This document shows, one piece after another, positions 1-4,078 of a DNA stretch of 4,078 bases; the stretch's first letter is position 1, and every line of letters begins with the position of its first letter. The DNA is from a virus (lineage: Duplodnaviria; Heunggongvirae; Uroviricota; Caudoviricetes). Position numbers and translations under genes: made by a program. The notes under the pieces are model-generated. The model was not told the DNA's origin and made no database searches. It saw only the letters and a list, made by a program, of their open reading frames with translations. Location: the IMG/VR virus record IMGVR_UViG_2711768074_000019; one strand, given 5' to 3'.

Positions 1-83
1 TAGTCATGTGGGATGGCTGGTTCAGACTTCAGGATATGGTTGAGGGTTACCTGGTGATGAAGTCTCTTGATCAGGAGATCTGA
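1..83 (+). CDS. IS4-family (IS50-like) transposase, C-terminal fragment; the 5' part lies outside the window
   Basis: Seen: in-frame codons from position 3 translate to VMWDGWFRLQDMVEGYLVMKSLDQEI, then stop. Recalled Tn5 Tnp tail ALWEGWEALQSKLDGFLAAKDLMAQGIKI aligns without gaps (W-[DE]-G-W, LQ, [DE]-G-[FY]-L, K-x-L, terminal I). Identity is only about 40 percent by eye. Confidence 0.65.
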   Translation, partial: VMWDGWFRLQDMVEGYLVMKSLDQEI

Positions 84-92
84 TCAAGAGAC
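62..92. repeat. Palindrome inside the IS end (13-bp arms 62..74 and 80..92, 5-nt centre) carrying three GATC Dam sites
   Basis: Seen: gtctcttgatcag / gagat / ctgatcaagagac, with GATC at 69..72, 77..80 and 82..85. The same structure is mirrored at 3985..4015. Knowledge: the IS50 inside end is regulated by Dam methylation of GATC sites. Confidence 0.6.
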
Positions 93-182
93 AGCCGCAC
101 AGGGGGATTCACCATGCCAGTTTCTTTTAACAAACTCCCCGCAAAACAGACAACTGTCAACCGTCTGAATTGTGAGACATTT

Positions 183-206
183 AAAAAAAAGCCCGCAAAA
201 GCGAGC
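183..206 (-). terminator. Rho-independent terminator closing the minus-strand tRNA transcription unit
   Basis: Seen: the minus-strand RNA reads GCUCGC-UUUU-GCGGGC (6-bp stem with one G.U pair, from 206..191) followed by eight U (complement of A183..A190). Confidence 0.7.
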
Positions 207-221
207 CAGGGAAAATAAGTG

Positions 222-298
222 TGGCGCGTTGTACTGGATTCGAACCAGTGACCGATTGCTTAGAAGGCAATTGCTCTGTCCGGCTGAGCTAACAACGC
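222..298 (-). tRNA. argO: tRNA-Arg (anticodon UCU)
   Basis: Seen: the reverse complement folds as a cloverleaf with acceptor stem GCGTTGT/ACAACGC, T-loop GGTTCGAATCC, anticodon loop CU-UCU-AA and a 3' GCCA. It closely resembles E. coli argU by eye. The symbol is assigned from its position in an ileZ-argN-argO-like cluster, not from a search. Confidence 0.8.
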
Positions 299-311
299 AG
301 GATACAGATAA

Positions 312-388
312 TGGACCGCCTTCGGGGACCCGAACTCCGCGCAACCAGCTTCGAAGGCTGGCGCTCTTTCCTGATGAGATAATGGCGG
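312..388 (-). tRNA. argN: tRNA-Arg (anticodon UCG), with an atypical T-arm
   Basis: Seen: acceptor stem CCGCCAT/AAGGCGG (one A-A mismatch), anticodon stem-loop CCAGC-CTTCGAA-GCTGG and a 3' TCCA. The T-loop is TTCGGGT (G where A58 is normally conserved) and the T-stem has one mismatch. The symbol is assigned from cluster order only. Confidence 0.65.
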
Positions 389-395
389 TATGTGA

Positions 396-471
396 TGGTG
401 GCCCTTGCTGGATTTGAACCAGCGACCTGGCGATTATGAGTCGCTCGCTCTCACCACTGAGCTAAAGGGCC
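396..471 (-). tRNA. ileZ: tRNA-Ile2 (anticodon CAU, lysidine type); formally tRNA-Met cannot be excluded
   Basis: Seen: GGCCCTTTAGCTCAGTGGTGAGAGCGAGCGACTCATAATCGCCAGGTCGCTGGTTCAAATCCAGCAAGGGCCACCA, with a perfect 7-bp acceptor stem and anticodon CAT. It is near-identical in layout to E. coli ileX/ileY as recalled. It is the first gene of the Ile-Arg-Arg cluster. Confidence 0.8.
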
Positions 472-480
472 GCGCGCAGA

Positions 481-510
481 ATAATAACGTTACGGAATTA
501 ATACTGCAAT
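481..510 (-). promoter_or_regulatory. Candidate sigma70 promoter for the tRNA cluster
   Basis: Seen on the minus strand: -35 TTGCAG (510..505), 18-bp spacer, -10 TATTAT (486..481), then a GC-rich discriminator (GCGCGC) about 9 nt before the tRNA-Ile 5' end. Inference only. Confidence 0.4.
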
Positions 511-520
511 CTCATCCGTT

Positions 521-1570
521 TCAAACGATTAAATCCTGAACTTCCCTGACTGTCTGCTCAAAACGTCCGGTCTCCAGCTCAACACCAATCGCACGACGCC
601 CCAGTGCCATCGCCGCTTTTACCGTTGAACCCGACCCCATGAAAAAATCCGCAACCAGATCACCAGGACGACTACTTGCGCTGATTATCTGCTGCAGCAT
701 TTCTGCCGGTTTTTCGCACGGATGTTTCCCTGGATAGTACTGCACCGGTTTATACGTCCACACATCGGTGTACGGCACCTGCACCGTCACACCGAAATAC
801 CGCCGCAAATTTTTATATTCACTCAGCAGTTCCATATACTGCCGGTTCAGCTCACTGTATGTGCTGACCAGCTGGTGGTGTGGCTTTTCCAGTTCCCCGC
901 GCTGATGTTTCTCTTCTGCCACCCGGGCAAACAACGCCTGCAATTTGTTGTAATCACCCTCGTTCGGTAACTGCCACTGACTGGTACCAAACCAGTGCGA
1001 AGCCATGTTTTTCTTTCCGGTGGCTTCCGCTATCTGTTTTGACGTTATTCCCAGTGATTTACGCGCATCACGAAAGTAAGAAATCAGCGGGGCCATGACG
1101 TGCTGTTTTAGCTCGCGCCCCTGTGCCACATAGCCATCATCTTTCGGGCGATACGGTCCCTGATAATGTTCTGCAAACAGAATGCGCTCTGTTGCCGGAA
1201 AATACGCCCGCAGACTTTCCTTATTGCACCCGTTCCAGCGTCCGGACGGCTTCGCCCAGATAATGTGGTTCAGCACATTAAAGCGCTCACGCATCATGAT
1301 TTCGGTGTCAGATGCCAGGCGATGACCACAGAACAGGTAAAAACTTCCGGCAGGCTTCAGTACCCGCCAGAACTGCGCCAGACACTGGTCCAGCCATTTC
1401 AGGTAATCATCGTCGCCCTCCCACTGGTTATCCCAGCCCTCGGGCTTCACTTTAAAGTATGGCGGGTCTGTGACTATCAGATCGACAGAGTTTTCCGGTA
1501 AGGTCTGGATAAATTCCAGGCAATCAGCGTTGATTAACTCACAACTGGATATTTTTACAGTATTAGCCAT
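521..1570 (-). CDS. Beta-class DNA amino-methyltransferase (N6-adenine or N4-cytosine), orphan within this window
   Basis: Seen in the 349-aa ORF: N-terminal DLIVTDPPY (motif IV), HPCEKP, and C-terminal DLVADFFMGSGST (FxGxG AdoMet motif I). Motif IV before motif I is the beta-class order. The central region carries an HTH-like LGITSKQIAEATGK. No endonuclease gene is nearby. Confidence 0.85.
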   Translation of the reverse strand: MANTVKISSCELINADCLEFIQTLPENSVDLIVTDPPYFKVKPEGWDNQWEGDDDYLKWLDQCLAQFWRVLKPAGSFYLFCGHRLASDTEIMMRERFNVLNHIIWAKPSGRWNGCNKESLRAYFPATERILFAEHYQGPYRPKDDGYVAQGRELKQHVMAPLISYFRDARKSLGITSKQIAEATGKKNMASHWFGTSQWQLPNEGDYNKLQALFARVAEEKHQRGELEKPHHQLVSTYSELNRQYMELLSEYKNLRRYFGVTVQVPYTDVWTYKPVQYYPGKHPCEKPAEMLQQIISASSRPGDLVADFFMGSGSTVKAAMALGRRAIGVELETGRFEQTVREVQDLIV

Positions 1571-1711
1571 AGATCAATAAGCACTTCTCTGATAGGCTCA
1601 TACCGCTTTTGCGCAAAGCAGATGGGCCTGAGGTTTGCTTGTGACCCCAACGCATGAGCAGATGGCTGGCAGGTGCCGCTAACACCCACCAGCCGCCCAT
1701 TACCACAAATT

Positions 1712-1733
1712 AAAAAACCTTCACTGAGGAAGG
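1712..1733 (-). terminator. Weak hairpin plus U-run overlapping the stop codon of the small HTH ORF; possible attenuator or weak terminator
   Basis: Seen: a 5-bp stem CCTTC/GAAGG (1718..1722 with 1729..1733) and a 6-nt loop. On the minus-strand RNA it is followed by six U (complement of A1712..A1717). The stem is short, so this is weak. Confidence 0.3.
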
Positions 1734-1918
1734 CGTCTGTAACAACCGAACTGATAATCTGCCAGACCCGCCATAACAAGCTGAGTCAGTATTAACTGGC
1801 AGCGTTCGCGTGAAAGGTAAGTATTCTGCGCAATTTCCCCGACGGTCGCCGGTTCGGTGACGCTTAATTCATTAAACACCACTCTGGCGGTTTCGGTCAT
1901 ATCCTGCTGTTTTAGCAT
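1721..1918 (-). CDS. Small hypothetical protein (65 aa) with a predicted helix-turn-helix
   Basis: Seen: internal ATG at 1918..1916 preceded by AAGGG about 8 nt upstream. Product MLKQQDMTETARVVFNELSVTEPATVGEIAQNTYLSRERCQLILTQLVMAGLADYQFGCYRRLPQ. The segment ATVGEIAQNTYLSRERCQLILTQL looks like an HTH; this is inference from the pattern. The longer track ORF (to 2041) starts at GTG directly against the terminator and is less plausible. Confidence 0.45.
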   Translation of the reverse strand: MLKQQDMTETARVVFNELSVTEPATVGEIAQNTYLSRERCQLILTQLVMAGLADYQFGCYRRLPQ

Positions 1919-2041
1919 GCCTTTTTCCCTTTTCCGGTTAACGTGACATACCAATACCTCTTGTCGAAAAAGCCAGCAAGCTGAAAGACCGGCATTCGCA
2001 ACCACCAGCGCATTTAACGTCCTGTACCGCTTTTCGGGCAC

Positions 2042-2069
2042 AAAAAAACCCGCATAAAGCGGGTTCTTT
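2042..2069 (-). terminator. Strong intrinsic terminator (hairpin usable on both strands) about 85 nt downstream of the Q-like gene; tR'-like
   Basis: Seen: stem CCCGC/GCGGG (2049..2053 with 2059..2063, extendable by two A-T pairs) and loop ATAAA. The minus-strand RNA is followed by seven U (A2042..A2048); the plus strand is followed by TTCTTT. Confidence 0.75.
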
Positions 2070-2153
2070 CAGGTGTCCATGTCTGCTATTCGCCTCGCGG
2101 TATAGCTTTGCGAAGCGTAGCTGGATTGAAACAGTTTATGCGTAAAAAATCAA
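2070..2153 (-). promoter_or_regulatory. Candidate late promoter and Q-utilisation region (pR'-like) between the Q-like stop and the terminator
   Basis: Seen: a weak candidate -35 TTGATT (2153..2148, overlapping the stop codon), 17-bp spacer, -10 TTCAAT (2130..2125). This -10 lacks the conserved A at position 2. Placed mainly by analogy to the lambdoid Q-pR'-tR' layout. Confidence 0.3.
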
Positions 2154-2704
2154 GACATTTTTTGAGCAAACGATTCTCGCATAGGGATGTATAGCGCATA
2201 TTCAGCAACAGCCAACCAATTAGCAATTCGCTTTTCGCATGTACTAAAACACCATTCCGGGTGCACCTCATTCAACAATTCAGCCATTTTGCGTTTACTC
2301 ATCCCCCGCCCTTCGTATCTTTGCCGCAGGATATCAATCAATCCAGGATAACGTGCAAGCGCTTTACTTATCACCCCATCAATGCGTAACGCCTCTGCAT
2401 CAGTACAGTGAGACAACCAGCTCTTCTGTCTGCCAGCGATCATCTCTCGCAAGAATGCTTCCAGCTCTGGTTTATCAATCCCTGACTCCCTGATTCTACG
2501 CAGGGCTTCATTGATCGCGGTTTTTGTCAGTTTTTTGGATGTCAGCAACTGATTGAACATATTTCCTGGTTTGCCACCACCTATGTACGACCAACGCCCC
2601 CACATCCGTAATTTCCCCTGGATCCAGACGGCTTCCAGCGTTTTTAGACGTAAATGCTCGCCGCTTTTGCCTGTAATTTCCGGGTATATCATATTTACGA
2701 TCAC
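2150..2704 (-). CDS. Putative late-gene antiterminator Q-like protein
   Basis: Seen: a 184-aa ORF starting at GTG 2704..2702, which overlaps the RusA stop (GTGA); an alternative ATG lies at 2692..2690. It contains LRMWGRW, reminiscent of the L-x-R-W-G-x-W N-terminal motif I recall in phage 82-type Q. Synteny also fits: RusA then Q, as in DLP12 and phage 82, followed about 90 nt later by a strong terminator. No domain search was run. Confidence 0.5.
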   Translation of the reverse strand: MIVNMIYPEITGKSGEHLRLKTLEAVWIQGKLRMWGRWSYIGGGKPGNMFNQLLTSKKLTKTAINEALRRIRESGIDKPELEAFLREMIAGRQKSWLSHCTDAEALRIDGVISKALARYPGLIDILRQRYEGRGMSKRKMAELLNEVHPEWCFSTCEKRIANWLAVAEYALYIPMRESFAQKMS

Positions 2705-3060
2705 TCACTCTCAATTTTGTAAATCTTCACGCCCAGCCGCCCCCCAGGAACGAGCTGACCGCGCACAATATTAATTTCATCAAACTGCTCGTCGTCTATG
2801 AGAAGTCCGGCATGCGTCAGCGCATCCAGTGGTGCTTTCAGGATATTGTCCAGGTCACGACGACGCTTATCCGGTGGCTCTGCAATAATCTTTATCGCCA
2901 GCCGTCCGGACAGGTTTAATTTCAGCCGCTGCTCGCGAACAATTAGCGCCACATCCCGGCGATAACGCTCACCGGCTTTTGATACAAAATATGTGTTGTC
3001 ACGACGTCGCCAGTAGGTGTTCACCGTTGGCGGGTAAGGCAAAACAAACTCTATACGCAT
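2701..3060 (-). CDS. rusA: Holliday-junction resolvase RusA (crossover junction endodeoxyribonuclease)
   Basis: Seen: 119 aa with LPYPPTVNTYW, DKRRRDLDNILKAPLDALTHAGLLIDDEQ and GGRL, matching the RusA signature and its acidic catalytic residues. SD AAGAGG lies 6 nt upstream of ATG 3060..3058. Confidence 0.9.
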   Translation of the reverse strand: MRIEFVLPYPPTVNTYWRRRDNTYFVSKAGERYRRDVALIVREQRLKLNLSGRLAIKIIAEPPDKRRRDLDNILKAPLDALTHAGLLIDDEQFDEINIVRGQLVPGGRLGVKIYKIESE

Positions 3061-3072
3061 CAGTAACCTCTT

Positions 3073-3978
3073 TTACCCAAGCACGCCGGTTGCAAAGGCG
3101 TGATCAAGAAAATGAAAAATTAAATCAACCTGGGAACCATGCTTTTCTTCGAATGCCAGCGGATCCGCATGAAGCTCGTTGTGATGTTCCCGACACAGCG
3201 GTAGTGTGAAAATATCGTGGGATTTTGTTCCCATTCCACCCTGACCGTGGCCTATCAGGTGGTGGGCATCATCAGCAGGCTTTCCGCAACATGCGCACGG
3301 CTGCGTCTTAACCCAGCGCGTGTACTTTTCATTAACCCAGCGGCGACGTTTTGGGCGTAACATAAAAGACTCCGGCGACTCCGGATCCACTTTCAGCGCC
3401 AGCACCTTTTTCGCCTTATCCTGGATGATGCTGGTGGCAGGAACCGAAGGCACAAGGTCACTTTCCCGGGTAACAGACGGCACAACAGGCTTCGGTAATC
3501 TCAGTGCCTTACGGGCTGCACTTTCCGATAAGGCATCCGCCAGATCATTACGAATCAGCCACCAGCACAGTTCCGGCATTGTCACAACGTGACTGTCGTC
3601 AAAACCGAGCTCCCGACGCACAACAGACAACACCCAGCGGGCACAGTTATCCGTTGCCATTGATTCCAGCCGTTCCGTGAACTGATCGCGCAGCTGGTTA
3701 TCGCAGTGCCAGCACAGACGGATTGCGCCCGGAGCGTGTCGCATTGTGGTCATGTTCTCGCTGTGCCAGTTGGAATGAGGCCACTGACAGCCCTTTTCAC
3801 GAAGTAACCAGCTTTCAAGACATTCCACGCCACCAGCACGACGGATCACTGCCTCATTGCGGAACACGGCCCGAACGGCAGGATCATCCGCCAGCGGTTG
3901 TGATGCCGCCGGAACGGCACCACTGGCAAAAGATGAATAACGTTCCGGCTCAGGCTCCAGCAGGACACGCCCCTGCAT
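3073..3978 (-). CDS. DUF968 / YdfU-like prophage protein with a C-terminal HNH-like zinc-binding nuclease domain; possibly N-terminally truncated by the IS
   Basis: Seen: 301 aa. The C-terminus PCACCGKPADDAHHLIGHGQGGMGTKSHDIFTLPLCREHHNELH has the Cys/His spacing and G-x-GTK element of HNH-like prophage nucleases (compare DLP12 YbcO as recalled). The ATG at 3978..3976 is only 5 bp from the IS end. Confidence 0.55.
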   Translation of the reverse strand: MQGRVLLEPEPERYSSFASGAVPAASQPLADDPAVRAVFRNEAVIRRAGGVECLESWLLREKGCQWPHSNWHSENMTTMRHAPGAIRLCWHCDNQLRDQFTERLESMATDNCARWVLSVVRRELGFDDSHVVTMPELCWWLIRNDLADALSESAARKALRLPKPVVPSVTRESDLVPSVPATSIIQDKAKKVLALKVDPESPESFMLRPKRRRWVNEKYTRWVKTQPCACCGKPADDAHHLIGHGQGGMGTKSHDIFTLPLCREHHNELHADPLAFEEKHGSQVDLIFHFLDHAFATGVLG

Positions 3979-3982
3979 AAAC

Positions 3983-4078
3983 CTGTCTCTTGATCAGATC
4001 TCCTGATCAAGAGACTTCATCACCAGGTAACCCTCAACCATATCCTGAAGTCTGAACCAGCCATCCCACATGACTACC
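3983..4078 (-). mobile_element. Second, inverted copy of the IS50-like inner end; transposase on the minus strand, again reading towards the cargo
   Basis: Seen: 3983..4076 is the exact reverse complement of 1..94. It begins CTGTCTCTTGATCAGATCT at 3983..4001 and runs off the window edge. Confidence 0.75.
3994..4078 (-). CDS. IS4-family (IS50-like) transposase, C-terminal fragment (second copy)
   Basis: Mirror image of feature 1..83, with stop codon TGA at 3996..3994 on the minus strand. Confidence 0.65.
   Translation of the reverse strand, partial: VVMWDGWFRLQDMVEGYLVMKSLDQEI

Follow-up and report, generated by a model that had tools for sequence, protein, structure and literature searches.

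Positions 182–509 of the window, by which we mean the whole 4078-bp stretch of DNA analysed, are a self-contained tRNA operon of a lambdoid prophage, in which the promoter pT, the genes ileZ, argN and argO, and a terminator follow one another (Table 1). Our data as a whole very probably describe a lambdoid tRNA operon that supplies decoders of rare codons, in which argN is degraded and the absence of stx is ordinary, and which lies on a prophage fragment bounded by IS copies. The ileZ–argN–argO trio is a known module of lambda-like E. coli prophages, and there is nothing new in its identity. Little is at stake in the assignment, as the module already has its name in phage 933W and occurs in over half of the complete E. 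coli genomes. A search of the available literature on ileZ, argN and argO found no relevant paper, and the names of the genes and of the pT and terminator features follow the GenBank annotation of 933W. Contig CYGG01000169.1 (GCA_001284325.1) consists of the window and nothing else, and both of its ends lie inside copies of ISEc13.

Table 1. Positions of the features of the 4078-bp window, with the strand and the basis of each assignment.
Feature	Position	Strand	Basis and remarks
ISEc13 (IS4 family), 3' end	1–94	plus	transposase stop at 81–83; terminal inverted repeat to 94
STnc100 homologue, first 52 nt, cut by the IS	95–146	minus	Rfam model positions 1–52
Empty stx site	180–183	minus	blastn against 933W
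Intrinsic terminator of the tRNA operon	182–207 (hairpin 207–190)	minus	pattern scan; homology to 933W
argO, Arg(UCU)	222–298	minus	ARAGORN; Rfam 70.1 bits, E 1.9e-14; 76/77 identical to 933W argO
Spacer argN/argO, 13 bp	299–311		
argN, Arg(UCG), eroded allele	312–388	minus	ARAGORN; Rfam 33.8 bits, E 1.9e-4; 69/77 identical to 933W argN
Spacer ileZ/argN, 7 bp	389–395		
ileZ, anticodon CAU	396–471	minus	ARAGORN; Rfam 72.5 bits, E 4e-15; 76/76 identical to 933W ileZ
-10 hexamer TATTAT	481–486	minus	17 nt after the -35 hexamer; 9 nt before the mature ileZ 5' end
-35-like hexamer TTGCAG	504–509	minus	read from the sequence; position homologous to 933W pT
DNA methyltransferase (N6_N4_Mtase), 349 aa, directly upstream of the tRNAs	521–1570	minus	ORF list; Pfam; RefSeq on a relative
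Candidate Q-like late antiterminator (DUF1133, faint Phage_antitermQ)	2150–2692	minus	called gene; Pfam
Second ISEc13 copy, same end, inverted; truncates the DUF968 5' end	3983–4076	minus	

ARAGORN called exactly three tRNAs, and all of them lie on the minus strand of the window. The original prediction of Ile(CAU), Arg(UCG) and Arg(UCU) genes on that strand, separated by 7 and 13 bp, is borne out by ARAGORN and Rfam alike, and its naming of them as ileZ, argN and argO is supported by the match of order and sequence to the annotated 933W module. All three genes pass the gathering threshold of the Rfam tRNA model (RF00005, 29 bits), argN by a margin of 4.8 bits only, and all three far exceed chance matches. 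ileZ and argO are textbook tRNAs, and argN is marginal. Rejection of the middle element by a tRNA finder, as a pseudogene or non-tRNA, would have spoken against the prediction; ARAGORN called it a tRNA, Rfam placed it above threshold, and RefSeq annotates the identical sequences as tRNA-Ile, tRNA-Arg and tRNA-Arg, the middle one included.

The surroundings of the operon are those of a prophage. Positions 95–3982 of the window (3888 bp) are 99.9% identical to prophages of E. coli O55:H7 RM12579 and O111:H2 strain 12A. Upstream of the tRNAs on the minus strand lie, in order, genes for DUF968, RusA and the Q-like DUF1133 protein, a small ORF (65 aa) and the DNA methyltransferase gene. The product of the Q-like gene is a DUF1133 family protein in RefSeq, and its homologue in related phages is annotated as antitermination protein Q. 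Downstream in the intact relatives, the tRNAs are followed by about 270 nt and then by genes for a SASA-family esterase, a holin and a lysozyme. The cluster is thus located 3' of a Q-type gene and 5' of the lysis genes, as in the late region of lambdoid phages. It is not immediately 3' of Q, as had been proposed, because the 65-aa ORF and the 349-aa methyltransferase gene intervene. A host chromosomal tRNA locus was considered as a candidate and ruled out by the 99.9% identity to prophages and by the distance to the K-12 genes, ileX (68/76 identical positions) and argU (56/77); the assignment to a phage rather than a host locus therefore stands.

The terminator expected downstream of the tRNAs was called by the pattern scan. 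Its hairpin, GGCTCGC-TTTT-GCGGGCT, has a 7-pair stem and a 4-nt loop and is followed by a T-run, and it is homologous to the element annotated in 933W as 'possible rho-independent terminator upstream of the stx genes'. The promoter expected upstream was supported in another way. In the promoter scan the candidate tRNA promoter remained below threshold, because its -35 hexamer matches the consensus at 3/6 positions only. The region is homologous to the 'pT putative tRNA promoter' of the 933W GenBank annotation, and TATTAT is nearly invariant across 29 distinct upstream haplotypes (one position is substituted in a few lineages), whereas the neighbouring bases vary. The near invariance of the -10 hexamer amid varying neighbours supports a real promoter, and the claim of a promoter is based on this conservation and on the homology to pT.

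ileZ is identical to K-12 ileX at 68/76 positions, with a compensatory change at pair 6-67, and to the K-12 elongator tRNA-Met genes metT/metU at 54/78 only. Its acceptor stem, GGCCCUU/AAGGGCC, contains the pairs C4-G69 and C5-G68, which we take to be determinants for TilS. The likeness to ileX and the RefSeq annotation as tRNA-Ile point to a lysidine-dependent tRNA-Ile2 and not to a tRNA-Met; judged by its sequence, ileZ is of the tRNA-Ile2 (lysidine) type. argO differs from 933W argO at a single position, with A37 in the window and G37 in 933W, and A37 is the state of 64/67 loci.

The expected function of the operon follows from its anticodons and from E. coli tRNA biology. The CAU anticodon of ileZ would be modified to lysidine by the host TilS, and the resulting tRNA-Ile would read AUA; argO (UCU) would read AGA and AGG, and argN (UCG) would read CGA and CGG. 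In a lysogen the operon would be transcribed from its own sigma-70 promoter. Upon induction it would also be part of the Q-dependent late transcript and would be read through by the Q-modified polymerase, and host RNases would process the three tRNAs. All three might thereby supplement decoders that are scarce in E. coli and needed by phage genes or horizontally acquired genes. In phage genes (of the window, RM12579 and 933W) there are 7–13 ATA and 6–12 AGA codons per 1000, compared with 3.9 and 0.7 in a K-12 chromosomal sample of 14 genes only. The frequency of ATA in stxAB is 36.8 per 1000.

Sequence variation among related clusters indicates which of the tRNAs are maintained. An exact 29-nt ileZ pattern was used to fetch 120 IMG/VR loci, and the alignment comprised the 67 clusters with an argO-type gene after ileZ, taken from IMG/VR loci, reference prophages and the window, with 58 distinct haplotypes. 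The loci are related and recombining, and the exact pattern biases ileZ toward conservation, not argO or argN. Among the 58 haplotypes the mean pairwise difference was 0.013 for ileZ, which is partly an ascertainment effect, and 0.027 for argO, which is free of this bias. It was 0.188 for argN, 0.20–0.22 for the spacers and 0.22–0.33 for the flanks. ileZ and argO are nearly invariant in loci where argN and the spacers differ by about 20%, which indicates that purifying selection still acts on both genes. These data suggest that selection keeps the decoders of AUA and of AGA/AGG even in defective prophages, and that argN drifts like a spacer.

The same comparison bears on the view that the whole cluster is an inert relic in a dead, IS-fragmented prophage, with three tRNAs that are neither expressed nor useful any more. 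An ISEc13 end lies on each side of the fragment, the insertions have severed the late operon from the lysis genes and truncated DUF968, and argN is eroding, all of which would be expected of a relic. However, ileZ is identical to the gene of the inducible phage 933W and argO is one base off, the -10 box and the terminator are intact and conserved, and ileZ and argO have stayed nearly constant across the alignment while the DNA between them changed. We therefore regard an inert cluster as improbable, and a tRNA operon in which two of the genes are under selection remains the preferred interpretation.

The middle gene differs from its neighbours. By the Rfam alignment and a count of its pairs, the T-loop of the window argN is UUCGGGU, with G58 instead of the near-universal A58, and its stems contain the mismatches A6.A67 (acceptor), U10.C25 (D-stem) and A52.C62 (T-stem). 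The unusual T-loop and the T-stem mismatch had already been noticed in the original prediction, and the acceptor and D-stem mismatches are additional. The set of canonical features that is found in 933W argN (all stems paired, G10-C25, T54-A58) is not found in the window argN. It retains the anticodon stem-loop, the G18-G19 pair and the encoded CCA, and has an A at the D-loop position read as A20, which is presumably an identity element for Arg. Minimum-free-energy folding reproduced the cloverleaf neither for the window argN nor for 933W argN, and folding was therefore left out as evidence. Covariation among the 29 distinct argN alleles (three double changes, all from one sequence; 96% of cells paired) supports the cloverleaf and adds little.

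Comparison of the alleles places the window argN within a series of decay. Every stem is paired in 18 alleles, that of 933W among them. The combination of A6.A67, A52.C62 and G58 is common to five alleles (9 loci), and the form with A6.A67 and A52.C62, when the window allele and a sixth variant are included, makes up 7/29 alleles. The window allele adds U10.C25 and was found only in the window, in RM12579, in strain 12A and in one IMG/VR locus. Wherever it differs from the fully paired alleles, the change affects a stem pair or a near-universal position (G10, A58), and no such change is compensated. Other alleles of the slot have deletions or scrambled anticodon arms, and a few have a switched anticodon: UCU, UUU (with two compensatory anticodon-stem changes) or CCG. 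The Rfam scores of the middle slot fall from 54.8 bits in 933W to 33.8 in the window and below 16 in E2348/69, and it is only in the better-preserved variants that the middle tRNA has a RefSeq annotation. Fully paired argN was present in 7/7 stx-positive loci and in 17/44 stx-negative loci (hypergeometric p ~0.003, with relatedness ignored).

The window argN thus appears to be a derived allele in partial decay, which probably functions poorly or not at all; we consider it somewhat likelier that the tRNA is non-functional or severely impaired than that it works. The original prediction had left open whether this gene was decaying or specialised. The mismatches, the score of 33.8 bits, the series of alleles and scores and the divergence at the rate of the spacers make decay the better of the two suggestions, and specialisation is less supported. 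A functional, specialised tRNA would require that the odd T-loop and the mismatches are tolerated or even selected, for example through its behaviour with EF-Tu or the ribosome or through resistance to nucleases. Such a tRNA would still be called by ARAGORN, by Rfam and by RefSeq (as tRNA-Arg on the identical sequence), as is the case, and the intact anticodon stem-loop, G18-G19, CCA and presumed A20 would be expected of it. The form with A6.A67 and A52.C62 is also so common among the alleles and loci that it must have persisted for some time. Against this, the changes are uncompensated and affect stem pairs or the near-universal G10 and A58, the score is 21 bits below that of 933W argN, and the slot diverges at the rate of spacer DNA, with deleted and scrambled forms beside invariant ileZ and argO genes. 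Specialisation is therefore unlikely, though it deserves some weight. It is a good deal less likely that the middle slot is a rapidly turning-over tRNA cassette under diversifying selection, or else that an ISEc13 composite transposon is spreading the operon outside phages. If turnover of the slot were real, it would fit the idea that prophage tRNAs are reshaped so as to evade, or to complement, host defences or toxins that target tRNAs.

The cluster is not specific to Shiga toxin phages. A query with the cluster found 7597 places in 3061/5426 complete E. coli genomes, with up to 13 per genome, whereas the junction of argO, terminator and stxA2 was found in 599/5426. Among the IMG/VR loci with at least 1.5 kb downstream, stxA follows the ileZ-type gene in 7/85. 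Roughly 90% of the copies of the module have no adjoining stx, and the toxin-less state is the rule. The claim that this cluster is a hallmark of Stx phages is contradicted by these counts, and a tRNA trio 3' of Q should not serve as a marker of an Stx phage or of a lost toxin gene.

As had been predicted, no stx gene is present in the window. The blastn alignment with the 933W locus (L124) locates the site that a toxin cassette would occupy. Window positions 184–600 align to 3992–4409 of this locus, up to the tRNA terminator, and positions 95–179 align to 5745–5829, directly behind stxB. Where 933W has its 1335-bp stx cassette (stxA2B2 with short flanks), the window therefore has 4 nt. The boundaries of the cassette are clean and lie between the tRNA terminator and STnc100. 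The IS had been thought to stand in the place of stx; the empty site adjoins the terminator directly, and a further 85 nt separate it from the IS. No ORF of at least 40 aa lies in the stretch of 87 nt from the terminator to the IS, and the window does not qualify as part of an Stx phage. At the homologous position in the intact prophages of RM12579 and strain 12A there is no stx either. On the evidence of these alignments, the absence of stx is the ancestral or an ordinary empty-site state and not a loss caused by the IS.

The opposite view, that the IS removed or displaced a Shiga toxin operon and that the fragment is a former Stx phage, would be in line with the fact that the closest relatives in the phage databases (~90% identity) are mostly Stx2 phages and that an IS end follows the cluster. 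However, the DNA that follows stxB in 933W is still present in the window and is contiguous with the terminator, the 99.9% identical prophages of RM12579 and 12A are uninterrupted and have no stx, and E2348/69 has the IS at the same site as a simple insertion that duplicated 8 bp of its target. The sequence data thus contradict a former Stx phage, and we give this view almost no credence.

The IS itself entered a different gene. ISEc13 lies 127 bp downstream of argO, within a homologue of the sRNA STnc100 (Rfam RF02076, gathering score 47 bits). The fragment that is left in the window scores 23.6 bits and is not a full-length match. In E2348/69 the segment identical over window positions 95–175 scores 37.9 bits and likewise comprises STnc100 positions 1–52, truncated at the IS junction. 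STnc100 is full-length in the uninterrupted RM12579 prophage (137.7 bits), and in 933W it is found downstream of stxB (207.7 bits).

Positions 1–94 and 3983–4076 form a perfect 94-nt inverted repeat. The contig holds 94 nt of each copy, and these are identical over 94/94 positions to annotated ends of the ISEc13 transposase in many E. coli genomes and plasmids; the end of the transposase CDS was mapped via E2348/69. At the right end, the DUF968 CDS of RM12579 runs 80 nt further than that of the window. The right IS junction was found neither in any complete E. coli genome nor in the collection of species-representative genomes. The two copies bound a 3.9-kb prophage fragment in which the late operon is broken and the tRNA operon keeps its promoter and terminator. 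Because the operon is self-contained, the insertions would not obviously silence it.

An arrangement of two inverted ISEc13 copies around 3.9 kb might also be a composite transposon that mobilises the tRNA operon. The inward-facing ends of the two IS copies are the same and form a perfect 94-nt inverted repeat, a layout that resembles that of Tn5, and the right junction is unique to this contig. In genomes of the UTI89 type, moreover, an IS4-family element abuts a diverged STnc100/tRNA fragment outside any recognisable prophage, next to iroB. On the other hand, in E2348/69 the left junction belongs to a simple insertion, and the prophage continues beyond the IS. The E2348/69 chromosome has about 30 matches to this IS end, and two copies in one prophage are therefore unremarkable. 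The contig ends within the IS copies, and the outer ends and target duplications fall outside the sequence. Mobilisation of the operon as a composite transposon is thus very unlikely, and we interpret the window as a prophage fragment bounded by two ISEc13 copies.

The closest named system is that of 933W (NC_000924, 21082–21408), in which pT, ileZ, argN, argO and the terminator have the same order and the same strand logic; across 419 aligned positions its promoter and terminator flanks share 90.5% identity with those of the window. Both modules belong to the late region and precede STnc100 and the esterase gene. They differ in that 933W carries the stxA2B2 cassette after the terminator and the window does not. 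The first spacer is 9 bp in 933W and 7 bp in the window, and the second is 13 bp in both. Between Q and the tRNAs, 933W has only pR', qut and terminators, whereas the window has the methyltransferase gene. The argN of 933W is fully paired, whereas that of the window has three stem mismatches and G58.

The prophages of RM12579 (NC_017656, 2676122–2680010) and 12A are closer still. Their tRNA cluster is identical, down to the argN allele, and they have no stx. Unlike the ISEc13-bordered window, they are uninterrupted, with a complete DUF968 gene and with the esterase, holin and lysozyme genes downstream. E2348/69 (EPEC O127:H6) shares the left IS insertion: 3' of the tRNAs, ISEc13 has entered at the very same nucleotide and with the same orientation, and the junction is 100% identical over 131 nt. 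There an 8-bp duplication, CCGCACAG, flanks the simple insertion, and prophage DNA resumes after it. E2348/69 does not have the second IS in the DUF968 gene, and its middle tRNA has decayed further, being unannotated in RefSeq and below 16 bits in Rfam. In K-12, ileX and argU have the same anticodons as ileZ and argO and presumably the same decoding. The anticodon loop of argU is identical to that of argO, but the whole genes are identical at 56/77 positions only, and ileX and argU are found at chromosomal loci and not in a prophage operon. We know of no tRNA-Arg(UCG) in K-12 that would be the counterpart of argN.

The window corresponds to the complete contig CYGG01000169.1 of GCA_001284325.1. 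The 3' end of ISEc13 occupies both of its ends (1-94 and 3983-4076), and the two 94-nt stretches form a perfect inverted repeat. The assembly therefore broke at a pair of IS copies in inverted orientation, each of which turns the same end toward the phage fragment. The terminal 19 bp of ISEc13 appear to match the IS50/Tn5 inside end exactly.

Each copy interrupts a phage feature. At the left end, ISEc13 breaks a homologue of the small RNA STnc100 (Rfam RF02076) after nucleotide 52. STnc100 is intact in the uninterrupted prophage of E. coli O55:H7 RM12579 and in the Stx2 phage 933W, where the order is stxB, STnc100 and AsxR. At the right end, the IS copy truncates a DUF968 gene. The coding sequence in RM12579 reaches the equivalent of window position ~4062, and gene callers use an internal ATG at 3978 as the new start of the truncated ORF.

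Features of the window and of the compared loci (L001, RM12579 prophage; L003, EPEC E2348/69 prophage locus; L124, phage 933W; L130, UTI89-type locus).
Feature	Position	Strand	Detail
ISEc13 terminal 19 bp	window 76-94 and 3983-4001		CTGTCTCTTGATCAGATCT
ISEc13 junction	window 94/95; L003 7501-9050; L130 4455-4640
STnc100 homologue, 5' part	window 95-146	minus	just downstream of tRNA terminator
Intact STnc100, RM12579	L001 5862-6052		137.7 bits
Intact STnc100, 933W	L124 5778-5983		207.7 bits
Region with hairpin and T-run, AACCCGC-TTTAT-GCGGGTT-TTTTT	window 2042-2149	minus	between Q-like gene and next ORF
Truncated DUF968 gene	window 3073-3982	minus	first 80 nt removed by right IS copy
Middle tRNA allele, E2348/69	L003 9271-9344		anticodon UUU

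In E2348/69, ISEc13 is inserted at the same nucleotide as in the window, inside the STnc100 hairpin, with an 8-bp duplication (CCGCACAG). UTI89-type genomes (237 genomes) carry an IS end that is 99% identical and an adjoining flank estimated to be ~79% identical, and this IS-linked flank adjoins iroB, outside any recognisable prophage. The occurrences in E2348/69 and the UTI89-type genomes point either to a target site that the IS prefers or to mobilisation of a tRNA fragment linked to the IS.

The region after the Q-like gene looks like a pR'/tR' late-promoter leader. Its match to isrK is weak and sub-threshold (Rfam, 21.6 bits, E = 0.14), and the terminator scan of the window did not call its hairpin and T-run.

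Among the surveyed IMG/VR loci (L004-L123), other clusters headed by ileZ-type genes contain Lys(UUU), Thr(UGU), Gly(UCC) or Arg(CCG), and in ten loci an ileX-like tRNA is represented by its 3' half alone, which may be an attachment-site remnant. In the E2348/69 allele between ileZ and argO, the anticodon stem carries two compensatory double changes, but the D-arm has lost 1 nt. For the class of loci that, judged by sequence, apparently carries this allele, ARAGORN identified the middle gene as tRNA-Lys; it has no RefSeq annotation and was undetected by Rfam.

Position 37 of argO is G in 933W (L124 4296-4372), whereas it is A in the window (222-298). A37 is also found in K-12 argU and in the argO of 64 of the 67 surveyed loci, and the unusual state is therefore that of the reference phage 933W.
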